This document shows positions 4,097 to 48,136 of a stretch of DNA of 64,000 nucleotides, piece after piece. Both the position numbers and the translations under genes were made by a program. Under the pieces are notes generated by a model. It saw only the letters and a program-made list of their open reading frames with translations. It searched no databases and was not told the origin of the DNA. The DNA is from Escherichia phage vB_EcoP_PE006, in sequence record OQ938541.1; one strand, given 5' to 3'. Within the stretch, counting starts at the first letter, position 1. Every line of letters begins with the position of its first letter.

Positions 4097-4395
4097 TTCA
4101 GGAGGCTTTAAAACATCAGATAGATTATGACCATAGGCATGACTACGGCACAATAAAGGAGAAAGATTAGTCCTATAGATTTAAGCATTACCCTAAACCG
4201 ATCTCAATTAGTTTAAGAATATCGAAAGCGGCAACAATCAGTAAATAGTTTAAAGAAACGAAGCCAATGACAAACAAAAACAGAAAGAACACAACCGGAC
4301 ACCTAAAAAACGTAAGAATAAAGCATATCAGCGACGAACAACGCCACTGCAACAACGAATAAGCAACGCAAAAAATAATCATGAATCATTAATTG

Positions 4396-37873: not shown

Positions 37874-38695
37874 TTATTCCCAAGTTTTTTCGAGCCACGA
37901 CCAATCAAATAGGTCTTCCGGAGTCTGACCAACAAAGAGCAGCCGAGCATTCTCAAGCATCTTCTCTTCATCTTCAGTATCGAACTTCTTATAATATTCC
38001 ATTCGTACTATATGATACATGGTCCACTTGTCTGTAACACCAGCCAATAACTTAGCTGCTGCTTTCTTCCCTATTCCTTGACGTCGAAGCTGAAGCTTAC
38101 CGCCCCACATAACTTCTTTACGTTCTCCACATCCGGGGATATTATCTGTACCATCTCCAACCAACATCTGATAGAAGAAGTTTTGCCATGAAACTAAATC
38201 AGATACATAGTGAGGAGGGACTTCTTTCTGTCTTTCTCCACAAGCCCAACGGTAGTGCCATCCGGGAGTTATCAACAAATCCTTGTCTCTAGTACAGATG
38301 ATAGTGTTCTTATCCCTACGTTGCCTTTCAGCTAGTGCATCATCAGCCTCTCTCCCAAATACATCTATATATTCATACTTACCTTTAATGTAATCACCAA
38401 CGTTCTGCCAGTGAAAAGGTCTTTCTCCGGGAGGTCTGTTTGCTTTGTAGTCTTGCTGCTTAGCAACATCAAAACGGAAGTTACCGCCTTCGCTGAAGTA
38501 GAACACAACCTTACTGCAACCTGAGCGAGCAATGATAGTATCTATCTTGTACTGAAGTCGTTCAATCATGAAATTGTAATCAACTGGAACACGTCCTGTG
38601 TCAAGAAAGGGATGCTCCTGAGTAAGAGCACCCACTTCATATCGAAGAACGTCAGCATCCACTATAGCTACTTCAGGGAGCTTAACGTCTTCCAT
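37874..38695 (-). CDS. 5'-3' exonuclease / flap endonuclease (FEN family)
   Basis: Motif VGDGTDNIPGCG...GKKAAAKLL matches the H3TH region of phage 5'-3' exonucleases. Confidence 0.7.
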   Translation of the reverse strand: MEDVKLPEVAIVDADVLRYEVGALTQEHPFLDTGRVPVDYNFMIERLQYKIDTIIARSGCSKVVFYFSEGGNFRFDVAKQQDYKANRPPGERPFHWQNVGDYIKGKYEYIDVFGREADDALAERQRRDKNTIICTRDKDLLITPGWHYRWACGERQKEVPPHYVSDLVSWQNFFYQMLVGDGTDNIPGCGERKEVMWGGKLQLRRQGIGKKAAAKLLAGVTDKWTMYHIVRMEYYKKFDTEDEEKMLENARLLFVGQTPEDLFDWSWLEKTWE

Positions 38696-39230: not shown

Positions 39231-40514
<1,284 letters not shown>

Positions 40515-40806: not shown

Positions 40807-41553
40807 TCAGAATGGGCTGTCGTTGTCATCTTCATAAGTAGAAGCAGGCTCTTTATCAATCGTAGGGATTGAAGGAGTAGCTTCTTTCTGCTCTGTTTCA
40901 GAAGCACGAGTAATTTCACGACCAGCCAGAGGCATGTTCTTAGCGTCGTTAGCTTGAGTAAGCAGGTTGCGCTGGAACGGGAACATCAGTTGATAGGATG
41001 CTACGTTCTCATCGGTTTCAGCATACGGTTCGAAGAATACCAGAGGACTACGAGCTTCACCAACTGCTGCACGATATTTGGTTGGGATTGGAGAAATGGT
41101 TTTGATGGAGTTTTTAACTTCACCAGCTTTATTAGTGTAAGAGTTAACCAGAATGTTGACAGGCTGACCTAACAGTACATCCTTAAACCAAGACAGATCA
41201 CCTTTCAGTGCTTGAATGCTTGGGTCAATCATCTTGCAGAGATCAAGGATACCAGAGTTCTTAGCTCGTGGGTTTACATCATAGCTCTTGAACTGGCAAG
41301 CAGGACGTGGTTCTAATGCCTTACCATCGGAATCTTTACCAGTAGCATCAACACCAATCAGCTCGAAAGCCAAATCCATACGGAAAGCTGGATTCTTAGG
41401 AGTTACTGCTTTGGTCTTCGGGTCAATCCAAGGGTCACGATTGTGAACACCCAAACCTACTACACGAACAATACGTGCTTCGTACTCACCATCAGGGATG
41501 ATGTCGTAGTTGGATTTACGGGAAGAGGTTGCGATAGTTGGAATCATAGACAT
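40807..41553 (-). CDS. ssb: single-stranded DNA-binding protein
   Basis: 248 aa with an acidic C-terminal tail ending ...YEDDNDSPF, like the protein-interaction tail of SSBs; sits in the replication module. Confidence 0.6.
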   Translation of the reverse strand: MSMIPTIATSSRKSNYDIIPDGEYEARIVRVVGLGVHNRDPWIDPKTKAVTPKNPAFRMDLAFELIGVDATGKDSDGKALEPRPACQFKSYDVNPRAKNSGILDLCKMIDPSIQALKGDLSWFKDVLLGQPVNILVNSYTNKAGEVKNSIKTISPIPTKYRAAVGEARSPLVFFEPYAETDENVASYQLMFPFQRNLLTQANDAKNMPLAGREITRASETEQKEATPSIPTIDKEPASTYEDDNDSPF

Positions 41554-41612: not shown

Positions 41613-41621
41613 TATACATTA
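41613..41621 (-). promoter_or_regulatory. TAATGTATA promoter-like motif (minus-strand sense) upstream of ssb
   Basis: Reverse complement of tatacatta, ~59 nt upstream of the SSB ATG, inside the palindrome ATGTATAGTATACAT. Confidence 0.4.
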
Positions 41622-41759
41622 CGCTTATACCGATAAGAGTACTATGTAATATAAGTATCTTTGGTAGTAGATATAACACACTAGTAATGTATATATTGTA
41701 TAGCTGATAAAGTTATTGCAGGCTTGTATATTGGGCAATTCACAGAATCCCTTGCAAGT

Positions 41760-41947: not shown

Positions 41948-42175
41948 TTACCATTCAAGTAAACCTTTAAAGTTAGACTGTTCTACTATCCTCTGATAAC
42001 GAAGATTAGAATCAGCTTGTTTCTTTAACATCTCATTATATTGGTCTCTGATAGAGTCTTTATAAACTACAGGTTCTTTAAATAATGAGATCTTCTTTTC
42101 TTCAGAGTTAGATAGTACATCCGTCACAAATGAAATCCCCACTAAGTGATTCTTGTAACAAGCGACTCTGTTCAT
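41948..42175 (-). CDS. hypothetical protein (75 aa)
   Basis: ORF only; overlaps the next ORF in another frame, so one of the pair may be spurious. Confidence 0.3.
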   Translation of the reverse strand: MNRVACYKNHLVGISFVTDVLSNSEEKKISLFKEPVVYKDSIRDQYNEMLKKQADSNLRYQRIVEQSNFKGLLEW

Positions 42176-44579: not shown

Positions 44580-46301
44580 TCACCAACTTTTACATGCACA
44601 ATGAAGTTTATGCATATCAATTACCTTAGCACAGCGAACCCCATCTTTCTCAATCCACTTGTTAAGGAACATCATAGCATATTTCATAACAACAGCACCA
44701 GCACATTGCAGGAGAGTGTTAAGTGCTTTATGAACCATAACTTTACCAGTGGCATCTCGTCTCATTGTAATCTTACGACCATCAACACCAATCAAGTACC
44801 CTTGAGCAGCTTTCTCTGTCATACGATCAATGAGGATTGCAATACATGGGTTCTCTGCCAAGAAACGTGCTCGCATCACTGAACCTTCGTCAGCCCCACC
44901 ACCTACAATTGAACCGAGCTTGGCATCACCAGCACCATAGTTGAATGCGTAGATAAATGTCTTAGCGTTGTCACGAGTAGGAAGACCAGCAAGTTTCTGG
45001 TTGTGGGAGTGGATATCACCTTCAAGGAGAATATCACGATACATAATAGCAGAAGCTAAACCACGCTCTGCCAGAGCTTTCTTAGCTGGATTATTCTCTT
45101 CGATTGCTTCAGCAAGCATATCCCTACACTCTTTAATGAGGTAGTGTGCAAGCATACGCAATTCTAATCCAGAACCATCATACCCTAAGAATACTTCTTT
45201 ACCAGCGGGTATGTAATATTTGTAAGCACCTACAGGTTTGTCTTTCTTCCCCGGCTTACCTTTCTCATAAATTACGTTAGTACCTTTTCGTATATAACAA
45301 CCATCAGGAACAACGTTAGTAATAACGAAAGGACGAGAGTGATCATCATCTGAGTTATAGTCAGATTCAAACAAACTGCGACACTCGTGACCAAACAAAC
45401 CACGGGAGGGAATATTAACCACGATACGATGTTTGAATCGAAAAGTCGGCGTAGCGCAGCTGTTAGCTTCTGCCGAAAGTTTACCATCTTCGCGTTCCTT
45501 TGCTATGAGTCCACTAATAAGACCTAGCCTGTGAGCCGCTACAACGCGTCTCTTAAGCAAACTTCCGACACTCCCTAGCTCACCCCCTAACCCTTCTTCA
45601 AGAGTCTCCTCGAGGTTTGTAGGAGCTGTAGGCCACTTGTTTGAGGTAGCTAGTGCTATCTTAATCTCATCAAAAGTGATAGGTCTACGTCGGTTAGGAT
45701 TTAAACCTAAACCAAATACATAAGCCTTCATATAGTTCTTAGTCTTAAACCTAAAATGCTTCTCTAAGAACTTCCTAATATCAGCGTCAACCATCTCGGC
45801 TGTCTGCTTCTGTTTAGCATTACCTCGCATCCAAGCTGAATACCATGCTTGGTATGTTCCATACTTTCGCATATCTTTCTTGATTTCAAAAGTATTCCAA
45901 GGCTTCTTAGATACGTTAAACTCTGGAGGAAGAAAGCCCTCATCCATAAGGGCTTCTTTAACTCGTGCATCTTTCGATGGGTCAAAGTCCACGTATTCAA
46001 CACAGGTGAATGCTCCACCAATGTCTTCTCTCTTAAGACCAACTCTATCACAATAGGCTTGAGGCCACTTCTGTAAAGCTCCAGACTTCTTAAATGGCTT
46101 CATATAAGTAGAGCCATCTAATCTCATCTTAGGTAAGAGAGGAATCAGTTCTTTGTCAATATTAACAATAATCTCTTTAAGGAGGTGAACATACCACCGA
46201 GCATTTCTTCGGTTGAAACTCACTCCGTGCTTCGCTTGCTTAGAGATTATATCAGCGACAGTCATCTCTGTCAAAAATGGGAGAGCGTCCGGGTTGCTCA
46301 C
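44580..46301 (-). CDS. DNA polymerase, family A (T7-like), polymerase domain with motifs A and B
   Basis: Motif A DGSGLELR and motif B RDNAKTFIYAFNYGAGDAKLG closely match T7 gp5 (DASGLELR; RDNAKTFIYGFLYGAGDEKIG); ORF stops before motif C. Confidence 0.85.
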   Translation of the reverse strand: MSNPDALPFLTEMTVADIISKQAKHGVSFNRRNARWYVHLLKEIIVNIDKELIPLLPKMRLDGSTYMKPFKKSGALQKWPQAYCDRVGLKREDIGGAFTCVEYVDFDPSKDARVKEALMDEGFLPPEFNVSKKPWNTFEIKKDMRKYGTYQAWYSAWMRGNAKQKQTAEMVDADIRKFLEKHFRFKTKNYMKAYVFGLGLNPNRRRPITFDEIKIALATSNKWPTAPTNLEETLEEGLGGELGSVGSLLKRRVVAAHRLGLISGLIAKEREDGKLSAEANSCATPTFRFKHRIVVNIPSRGLFGHECRSLFESDYNSDDDHSRPFVITNVVPDGCYIRKGTNVIYEKGKPGKKDKPVGAYKYYIPAGKEVFLGYDGSGLELRMLAHYLIKECRDMLAEAIEENNPAKKALAERGLASAIMYRDILLEGDIHSHNQKLAGLPTRDNAKTFIYAFNYGAGDAKLGSIVGGGADEGSVMRARFLAENPCIAILIDRMTEKAAQGYLIGVDGRKITMRRDATGKVMVHKALNTLLQCAGAVVMKYAMMFLNKWIEKDGVRCAKVIDMHKLHCACKSW

Positions 46302-46903: not shown

Positions 46904-47188
46904 TTAACCTTTTGGGAATGGCATTAAAGATTCCATAGCAGATTTAATTTCGCTATTGATTCGAGCATCTCGATAAGAGATAAACTTACCTTTGCTATCT
47001 CGTAACATCACATGGGTTCTAGCTGTTACGTGGGGAAGTAATGTAATACTAGTTGGGATAGCGTCAATCCTTACAGAAAATTTGTCAATAGTCTTGCTTT
47101 CACTTAACAGATAAGACCAAGTACGTGGTTTCTGCTCCGGATGATTAGGGTGTGTATCTACGATTTGAACCATAGCTAACTTATTCAT
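46904..47188 (-). CDS. hypothetical protein, paralog of 47190..47441
   Basis: Shares TART.V.LR...GKFISY...L.PFPKG with the adjacent gene. Confidence 0.5.
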   Translation of the reverse strand: MNKLAMVQIVDTHPNHPEQKPRTWSYLLSESKTIDKFSVRIDAIPTSITLLPHVTARTHVMLRDSKGKFISYRDARINSEIKSAMESLMPFPKG

Positions 47189-47189
47189 A

Positions 47190-47441
47190 TTAAACTCCTT
47201 TAGGGAACGGGATGAGGTTTTCTACTGCAACACGGAACTCTTTCTCTACACCTTTATTCTTATAAGAAATGAATTTACCATCAGCCCCACGGAGGATTAC
47301 GTTAGTACGAGCTGTTTTTGGGTTATGACCAATCTGGTTTGCAATGATATTAGCAATGCCGTGATTATTGGTGAATTTCCATTTAACCATACGATTGTTA
47401 GACATTACATCAATGATATTTACAGATTTTACAATAGACAT
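47190..47441 (-). CDS. hypothetical protein, paralog of 46904..47188
   Basis: Tandem duplicate, 1-nt spacing. Confidence 0.5.
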   Translation of the reverse strand: MSIVKSVNIIDVMSNNRMVKWKFTNNHGIANIIANQIGHNPKTARTNVILRGADGKFISYKNKGVEKEFRVAVENLIPFPKGV

Positions 47442-47470
47442 ATTTATTACCTAAGAAGTTTAATTTGGTT

Positions 47471-47504
47471 TATATAAAAGAAAAGGCCACCCATTTGGGT
47501 AGCC
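47471..47504 (-). terminator. rho-independent terminator (minus-strand sense)
   Basis: GGCUACCC / GGGUGGCC stem (one G-U) followed on the minus transcript by UUUUCUUUUAUAUA. Confidence 0.5.
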
Positions 47505-47509
47505 TCATG

Positions 47510-47833
47510 TTACGTTGAGCTTAAAGCTCCTTTTCGCTTAGCAGCACCAGCTGCTTTTCCAGCTCGATCACCACTTTTGCCGCCGTTTGAACGGTTTGAG
47601 CTGACTGATTCAACACGTAAGTTGCTTGACGCATTAGAGCCTCCAGACTTGACAGCTCGTTTGTGTCCAACATCTTTACCTCTGACAGCAGCTTTTCCAT
47701 CGCGCTTTTCAACGATGCGACGTGCACGGTGGCGCTGAGCATCTCCGCTCTTGCTCCCAACGCCTGTTTCACCACGGGCAATTGCGGTACGTCTTTCTTG
47801 TGCATAATCTCTCTTTCCTACATGGTCTGCCAT
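47510..47833 (-). CDS. small basic Gly/Lys/Arg-rich protein (possible nucleic-acid-binding or KGG-repeat-like)
   Basis: 107 aa, AAGGAG RBS, own upstream TAATGTATA motif and downstream terminator; the overlapping 47521..47805 ORF is the alternative reading. Confidence 0.45.
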   Translation of the reverse strand: MADHVGKRDYAQERRTAIARGETGVGSKSGDAQRHRARRIVEKRDGKAAVRGKDVGHKRAVKSGGSNASSNLRVESVSSNRSNGGKSGDRAGKAAGAAKRKGALSST

Positions 47834-47869
47834 TTAGAACTCCTTAATATATCAGTGTACACTAAGGAG

Positions 47870-47878
47870 TATACATTA
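47870..47878 (-). promoter_or_regulatory. TAATGTATA promoter-like motif (minus-strand sense)
   Basis: Reverse complement of tatacatta, 36 nt upstream of the ATG at 47833. Confidence 0.45.
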
Positions 47879-47887
47879 TGGATGCTA

Positions 47888-48136
47888 TTAAAACTCTGCT
47901 AAGTATTTAATATCAGAGGCATATACCTCATCAAAGGAAATAGGCTCTCCGTTGTAAAGAAGTTCTATCTTCAATATACCAGAGCATTTGGTGTCTTTAG
48001 AATCAACTCTGATAGAGAGTTTATCAACTATCTGAGCTTTAATCTCTTCTATTACCAACTCTTGAGTGTTATTCACTCCACCCTCCCGGTGGCACAAAAT
48101 CATCAGGAACGTCAATGATAGTAGGTTCTCCATCAT
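47888..48136 (-). CDS. hypothetical protein (82 aa)
   Basis: ORF only. Confidence 0.35.
   Translation of the reverse strand: MMENLLSLTFLMILCHREGGVNNTQELVIEEIKAQIVDKLSIRVDSKDTKCSGILKIELLYNGEPISFDEVYASDIKYLAEF

Follow-up and report, generated by a model that had tools for sequence, protein, structure and literature searches.

In published accounts, the middle and late promoters of coliphage phiEco32 consist of a single element, tAATGTAtA (PMC8948821, PMC4331800, PMC4281155, PMC12276001), which is read by host RNA polymerase together with the phage sigma factor gp36, with starts 6-8 bp downstream (PMC8948821, PMC4281155). Six such promoters, three middle and three late, are listed there as mapped experimentally, for genes 6, 13, 26, 40, 58 and 68 (PMC8948821, PMC4331800, PMC4281155); the mapping of the gene 58 promoter, P58, is known here second-hand, through later papers that cite it. 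Gene 58 itself (phi32_58) is annotated as hypothetical. The stretch examined in this work, 64,000 nt of Escherichia phage vB_EcoP_PE006 (sequence record OQ938541.1; hereafter the window), includes the ortholog of this gene in a region that shares 91-95% identity with the Kuravirus coliphages, phiEco32 included. The transcription unit is therefore textbook phiEco32 biology, and nothing in that part is new. The new element, a modest one, is that its product, a widely conserved protein usually labelled 'hypothetical', can be assigned to the HNH fold in a zinc-free form and linked to the replication modules of phages. Taken as a whole, the reading preferred here, a Kuravirus gene 58 unit for a basic HNH-fold protein that acts on DNA by the mechanism proposed below, is given a probability of roughly 0.55.

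The gene 58 transcription unit and its reading frame

The gene 58 unit lies wholly on the minus strand, and all coordinates are those of the window (Table 1). The initial annotation had described a promoter motif, a strong ribosome binding site (RBS) and a dedicated terminator around the gene, and had taken them as signs of high, independently regulated expression. Each of the three elements was borne out. The motif is an exact copy of TAATGTATA, which, by its sequence identity with phiEco32, is a gp36 promoter element and the ortholog of P58, with a predicted gp36-dependent start. As gene 58 belongs to the six genes with mapped gp36 promoters cited above, independent promotion of the unit agrees with the published work; high expression of the gene would be expected from the same elements. 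The self-contained unit is thus real, but it was already known as P58/gene 58 of phiEco32.

Table 1. Coordinates of the gene 58 unit, its product and the gp36-related elements in the window.
Feature	Position	Strand	Basis or remark
Promoter element TAATGTATA	47878..47870	-	Exact match; 36 nt 5' of the ATG at 47833; ortholog of phiEco32 middle promoter P58
Weak sigma-70-like promoter, TTAGCA-16-CATAAT	47875..47902	-	Consensus scan, 9/12 matches; overlaps the gp36 element
Predicted transcription start	47862..47864	-	From the published 6-8 bp spacing (PMC8948821); predicted 5' untranslated region of ~30 nt
Shine-Dalgarno sequence AAGGAG	47845..47840	-	Sequence inspection; 6-nt spacer to the ATG; kept in Kuravirus relatives
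Coding sequence, 107-amino-acid basic protein	47833..47510	-	Ortholog of phiEco32 gp58 (phi32_58) and SU10 gp56; PHROG 4590
Putative HNH (beta-beta-alpha-metal) core, residues 53-86	47576..47677	-	beta1 ending at H57, GG loop, N71-L72, beta2 with E75, helix with N80
Overlapping +1-frame open reading frame, 94 amino acids	47805..47521	-	Compositional by-product; not a conserved coding frame
Intrinsic terminator	47476..47506	-	10-bp stem, 4-nt loop, then TTTTCTTTT; starts 3 nt after the stop codon
gp36 ortholog (cognate sigma gene)	39610..40254	-	Encoded within the window
P6-like element TAATGTAGA	7718	+	Order and strand
P13-like element	15194	+	Order and strand
P26-like element	32222	+	Order and strand
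P40-like element TAATGTATA, exact	41613-41621	-	Precedes the gene-40 ortholog (40807..41553)
P68-like element AAATGTATA	52926	-	Order and strand

The window contains five exact copies of the 9-mer TAATGTATA where 0.82 are expected, a count reached in none of 100 shuffles, and its one-mismatch variants are not enriched there (19 against 19.8 expected). From promoter to RBS, the window sequence is that of phiEco32, and across nine Kuravirus relatives the promoter, 5' untranslated region and RBS show 0-1 differences even where the upstream gene is a different one. Promoters of the gp36-dependent class require no -35 element. The stop codon of the open reading frame (ORF) upstream of gene 58 is at 47888. 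The sigma-70-like match in the same place, at 9 of 12 consensus positions, has a frequency at the chance level for the region; a sigma-70 promoter with a poor -35 is given at the corresponding position in the SU10 paper (PMC4281155).

Copies or near-copies of the gp36 element are found on the strands expected for P6, P13, P26, P40, P58 and P68, the names of the other copies being assigned by order and strand. Two exact copies of TAATGTATA stand back to back, at 41613-41621 (-) and 41685-41693 (+), in a 390-bp intergenic region. The plus-strand copy has no plus-strand ORF behind it and points, in antisense, towards 41948..42175(-); an antisense or additional gp36 promoter is one possibility, a chance occurrence another. 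The late-promoter pattern of phage 7-11 was also sought upstream of the gene 58 homolog in that phage, where one match lies ~270 nt upstream; the pattern occurs at chance frequency and was not used.

The terminator hairpin, at 47506..47483 (-), has the form GAGGCTACCC-AAAT-GGGTGGCCTT and is followed directly by the T-run. Its folding free energy is -17.9 kcal/mol (z = -4.0), none of 200 shuffles folds equally well, and the terminator is kept in Kuravirus relatives. In SU10 and Ptacy1532 it reads GGCTGCCT-AATC-AGGTGGCC (loci L039, ~4310-4345, and L046, ~850-885) against GGCTACCC-AAAT-GGGTGGCC in the window (47483-47506). Relative to the window, one C-G pair is replaced by T-A, a compensatory change, and one A-T pair by G-T, which speaks for a conserved RNA hairpin. 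A scan of the window found no exact gp36 element on the minus strand between 47870 and 41621, that is, before P40, and genes 57 to 41, including the DNA polymerase gene, would therefore need read-through. Judged from the sequence, the terminator is probably leaky and would attenuate transcription into these genes; the expression of gene 58 would then clearly exceed that of the genes behind it.

The 3' end of gene 58 is also an insertion hot spot (window 47442-47512; L039 4303-4675; L046 844-1216; L047 838-1411). SU10 and Ptacy1532 have an extra 97-amino-acid ORF there, and in EcoN5 the site is occupied by a canonical HNH homing endonuclease, followed by a KGALSSS* remnant and then the terminator.

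The initial annotation had further held that the overlapping +1-frame ORF could not be excluded from sequence alone. That this ORF is the true product, or a second product, has in its favour that the frame is open for 94-98 codons in the window and stays long in many homologs. The openness of the +1 frame stems from composition, as only 13 of the 108 codons of gene 58 carry T as their second base. Shuffling of codon order or of synonymous codons leaves at least 98 codons open in 4-10% of cases. When the window gene was compared with 38 homologous genes, differences at codon positions 1, 2 and 3 of the 107-amino-acid frame numbered 0-3, 0 and 5-6 in the closest relatives and 16, 10 and 30 in L005 (87% identical), and most nucleotide changes hit the second codon position of the +1 frame. 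Protein identity to relatives falls to 17-38% in the +1 frame where the 107-amino-acid frame holds 60-71%, several homologs have 4-7 stops in the +1 frame, and the +1 ORF has no PHROG or Pfam support. A coding role for it is hardly to be credited: as judged by these sequence comparisons, the 107-amino-acid frame is the gene, and the codon-position pattern together with the collapse of identity excludes the +1 frame as a conserved coding frame.

Proteomics, which the initial annotation had named as a check of the translated frame, is already available for the SU10 ortholog. SU10_056 was found by mass spectrometry as a 10.8 kDa protein with two peptides and 18.3% coverage (PMC4281155 Table 2). 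It is identical to the window protein at residues 1-97, and its calculated mass of 10,827 Da fits the tabulated value, so that the published detection fits the 107-amino-acid frame. The transcription unit and reading frame as described are accordingly held to be close to certain.

Fold of the gene 58 product

The window protein has an isoelectric point (pI) of 11.5, with 26 Lys and Arg residues, 45 Gly, Ala and Ser residues and no Cys. It was assigned to PHROGs family 4590, function unknown, with E = 1e-39. By eye, the segment DVGHKRAVKSGGSNASSNLRVESVSSNRS resembles the HNH motif DH-x6-GG-x5-NL-x3-C-x2-C-N, with Ser replacing Cys. Homologs were collected as 179 sequences from 5.8 billion and as 390 clusters (50% identity) from a library of 1.8 billion representatives. 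Among 302 unique relatives, H57 is conserved in 98%, G64 and G65 in 94-95%, N71 in 94% and N80 in 95%, and the H-N-N/H triad of H57, N71 and N80 is complete in the window protein. The Pfam HNH model was matched at E<=1 by 20 of 27 diverse relatives (best 8.8e-5). At E<=1e-3, 13 of 117 relatives match HNH or HNH_3 and none matches any other Pfam family, and one family member, P0214, scores above the Pfam HNH cut-off (24.1 against 21.4 bits).

The AlphaFold model, built from 117 sequences, has a mean pLDDT (the per-residue confidence score) of 71, rising to ~82 over residues 30-80. Strands at 53-57 and 72-76 and a helix at 77-86 form a beta-beta-alpha unit in which H57 closes the first strand; the basic segments flanking this core are modelled with low confidence. 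HNH nucleases account for 17 of the 18 Foldseek matches in the PDB, though with E-values above 1. Seven matches at E<=1e-3 were obtained in BFVD, of which the top one is an uncharacterised Cronobacter phage relative and the only two that are named are both called 'HNHc domain containing protein'.

The CxxC/CxxH pairs of zinc-finger HNH domains (CCCC/CCCH; McrA / PF01844 type) are absent, and the window protein has Ser76 and Ser79 at the helix positions. Cysteine is lacking altogether in 92% of family members, and none has four or more. Hence, the window protein is, with high confidence, a cysteine-free, zinc-free HNH-fold protein.

The composition had led the initial annotation to propose either a nucleic-acid-binding protein or a KGG-repeat stress protein. 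The former was right in direction, the indicated fold being that of a DNA nuclease, and the latter did not hold. A KGG-repeat-like stress protein or disordered nucleic-acid chaperone would account for the Gly/Lys/Arg/Ser-rich composition and for the low confidence of the modelled C-terminal tail. The KGG family (PF10685) is, however, not matched by the window protein even at E<=10, nor by any of 117 relatives at E<=1e-3; over the central 50 residues the model shows a folded HNH core with good confidence, and conservation follows a motif pattern and not repeats. This explanation is therefore given very little credence.

Relatives are labelled 'HNH endonuclease' or 'McrA' in some public sources. 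Other public labels, namely 'Cas8 protein' (Ptacy1532), 'contains transmembrane domain' (LUZ24 gp26) and 'cytidyltransferase' (SeKF_80), look wrong; that of LUZ24 gp26 is ill-suited to a very basic protein with few hydrophobic residues. Five metagenomic proteins from uncultured phages (P0188, P0220, P0233, P0257 and P0262; 252-958 amino acids) have a gene-58-type domain at the C-terminus, and no Pfam or PHROG family was matched by the parts that precede it.

Active site, genomic context and role

In well-studied HNH enzymes, the residue before the catalytic His is a metal ligand; D839 in Cas9 and D40 in T4 endonuclease VII are examples. Position 56 of the gene 58 family is D in 78%, G in 11% and H in 3% of members, and the window protein and its closest relatives have G56. 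Relatives that are only ~80% identical carry D56/R75/D83 where the window protein has G56/E75/N83. The two positions vary together: of 284 sequences, 233 combine an acidic residue or His at 56 with a residue other than E/Q at 75, 37 combine a non-acidic residue at 56 with E/Q at 75, and 14 are exceptions, a coupling with a Fisher test value of 3e-32 that ignores shared ancestry. In a neighbour-joining tree built without columns 56 and 75, the non-acidic-56 type is scattered. Positions 56 and 75 would lie diagonally on one face of the hairpin if the strand register is as modelled. This covariation, which is new, suggests that some lineages have moved the metal-ligand carboxylate or amide from the first strand to the second; an exchange of salt bridges with a purely structural meaning would explain it just as well. 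Because some beta-beta-alpha nucleases use a single protein ligand, G56 does not exclude activity.

The preferred reading can be put as a sequence of steps. Host RNA polymerase with gp36 would initiate at the single-element promoter P58 in the middle phase, and the consensus RBS would drive translation of the 107-amino-acid frame. The hairpin would stop most transcripts, the remainder presumably reading into the downstream replication genes. The protein is predicted to use two regions for DNA binding, the arginine-rich N-terminal helix (RHRARR) and the Gly/Lys tail, and to cut or nick DNA with H57 serving as the general base. The metal ligands would be N80 and probably E75, which presumably stands in for the usual Asp before the His. 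That the product is an active DNA nuclease or nickase linked to replication is given about even odds.

A number of points weigh against this reading. No HNH model in Pfam or NCBIfam was matched by the window protein; NCBIfam has no family for it, and only one relative gave a match, below threshold, to an IscB HNH region. A profile search against PDB sequences returned nothing at E<=10. G56 departs from the prevailing residue of the family, and the Fisher test treats related sequences as independent. No nuclease assay on any family member was found in the published literature. A strong promoter, RBS and terminator suggest an abundant protein, which would be no less expected of a stoichiometric DNA binder than of an enzyme.

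The main rival is accordingly an abundant DNA-binding or architectural protein whose HNH scaffold is degenerate and non-catalytic; its task would be to cover or arrange phage DNA during replication, or to compete with the nucleoid proteins of the host. Replacement of the metal-ligand Asp by G56 in the phiEco32 clade, the extreme basicity, the low-confidence modelled ends and the high copy number suggested by the expression signals would all suit such a role. The most conserved block of the family is the N-terminal RGETGxGSxSGDAxRHRARR and not the HNH loop, and mass spectrometry of a crude SU10 preparation detected just eleven middle proteins, the gene 58 ortholog among them (PMC4281155). However, conservation of H57, N71 and N80 at 94-98% over 302 diverged sequences, the G56 type included, is not readily accounted for unless the protein catalyses a reaction or binds metal, and loss of D56 is nearly always paired with gain of E/Q at 75, which looks like preservation of a functional group. 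The non-catalytic role is thus considered possible, and distinctly less probable than the preferred reading of a basic HNH-fold protein that cuts or nicks DNA.

The context of the gene was examined in the phages that carry it. It is present in 252 phage records, including 105 from Pseudomonas phages, 93 Escherichia, 11 Aeromonas, eight Proteus, seven Salmonella, six Cronobacter and four Vibrio. A family-A DNA polymerase gene lies 150-2300 nt downstream on the same strand at 30 of 45 loci; grouped by polymerase identity, these loci represent at least eight lineages. In Kuravirus and in Vibrio phage Vp_R1, a PhoH gene is directly upstream, and LUZ24-like phages have the gene 58 homolog between parts I and II of the DNA polymerase. 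Neighbours in other phages include ribonucleotide reductase, DNA ligase, split polymerase and PD-(D/E)XK nuclease genes, and no terminase gene adjoins it in the contexts examined. The gene is associated with replication and nucleotide metabolism, and not with packaging or homing.

In LUZ24 (L048 15146-20305), the DNA polymerase is annotated in three parts, as LUZ24 gp25, gp34 and gp36; part I is followed by gp26, the gene 58 homolog, and parts II and III are separated by an endonuclease, gp35.

These data bear on two further roles for an HNH protein. A selfish homing endonuclease gene merely residing in the replication module would be in keeping with HNH being the commonest homing-endonuclease fold in phages, with the position between split polymerase pieces in LUZ24-like phages and with the insertion of canonical HNH homing endonucleases at the same locus in EcoN5. 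Yet the gene is reported from each of the five C3-morphotype phages that had been sequenced by 2014 (PMC4281155), it occurs across the 252 records, and its position is conserved in the lineages counted above. Loci from IMG/VR outside Kuravirus, several of them from different phage lineages, retain 52-74% identity, and the gene is under purifying selection; the protein has only ~100 amino acids and no Pfam domain besides HNH, and the gene has its own regulated promoter. A homing origin is accordingly judged highly improbable.

The second such role is that of a terminase-associated packaging protein like HK97 gp74, for which there is precedent in small phage HNH packaging factors of ~100 amino acids (Kala et al. 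2014, as cited in PMC9965538). It has still less to recommend it, given that the gene belongs to the middle (replication) cluster under a middle promoter, that terminase genes are far away in every context examined and that the zinc-finger cysteines typical of the packaging HNH group are missing.

A more specific function can be considered for the family if it is catalytic. The genomes of LUZ24-like and tf-like phages of Pseudomonas are nicked site-specifically at TACTRTGMC, and the nicking enzyme is not named in the papers describing this (PMC3517423, PMC11780129). PHROG 4590 might supply the nickase behind these single-strand interruptions, or a replication-coupled nickase generally, and the Kuravirus G56/E75 form would then be a variant in which the metal ligand has moved and the specificity has changed or been lost. 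The gene is next to that for DNA polymerase in every LUZ24-like or tf-like genome examined. The co-occurrence of gene and nicks carries little weight because these phages share most genes. T5 and phiKMV-like phages are nicked as well, and neither T5 nor any member of a phiKMV-group genus is among the 60 matches listed of the 252. The literature on LUZ24 gp26, or on an HNH nickase in nicked phages, yielded nothing on a gene-58-type protein. In the window, TACTRTGMC is not enriched (two copies against 1.74 expected). A role in the LUZ24-type nicks, or in replication-coupled nicking at large, is thus a speculative proposal, and an improbable one.

A scan for strand-biased words of 8-10 nt recovered GTACTATGAC at 7:0 in LUZ24, the positive control. 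The words it returned for the window, ATACCAGAG at 8:1 and CTTCAGAG at 12:2, were borderline and were rejected, as their flanks are unconserved and the sites are not kept in relatives. The 9-mer ATACCAGAG has eight plus-strand copies and one minus-strand copy, always within the leftward-transcribed part at 41037-62726, and its bias is probably a coding bias.

If the protein is an active nickase, it becomes a candidate for the unexplained nicks of LUZ24-like genomes and a compact, zinc-free nuclease scaffold of ~100 amino acids. The placement of the family as HNH-fold proteins covers the 252 records and ~390 clusters.

Neighbouring genes and comparison with known systems

Beyond the gene 58 unit, the two genes that follow it on the minus strand, at 46904-47188 and 47190-47441, are the phi32_56 and phi32_57 orthologs. 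They have the look of tandem paralogs, both ending ...GKFISY(R/K)...L(M/I)PFPKG, and neither has a Pfam match. The second of the pair is labelled 'autotransporter adhesin' in EcoN5, which looks wrong, as do the Cas8, cytidyltransferase and transmembrane labels given to gene 58 relatives. The DNA polymerase gene of the window is at 44580-46301 (-). Separate from it, 37874-38695 (-) encodes a weakly 5'-3' exonuclease-like protein below the Pfam cut-off; in the phiEco32 record, the DNA polymerase is described as lacking both exonuclease domains.

The closest system is phiEco32 itself, in which the gene order PhoH, small ORFs, 58, 57 and on to the DNA polymerase gene is that of the window, the small ORFs between PhoH and gene 58 being variable among phiEco32 relatives. 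The gene 58 proteins of the two phages are ~99% identical and differ by a two-residue insertion in the C-terminal tail (AAKRKGALSST in the window, ARKGALSSS in phiEco32), and the terminators are the same except for the loop. The direct sequence family is PHROG 4590, represented by LUZ24 gp26, phage 7-11 gp068 and SU10 gp56, all within the replication module. Most of its members are of the D56/R75 type, in contrast to G56/E75/N83 in the window, and a dedicated gp36 promoter is known only for its Kuravirus members. The KGG-repeat stress proteins (PF10685, YciG-like) are alike in small size and in their basic or Gly-rich, low-complexity appearance, without detectable homology. The small stand-alone HNH nicking endonucleases, Gme HNH (4h9d) and that of phage GVE2 (5h0o), and the McrA-type HNH domain (6ghc) are among the closest known systems.

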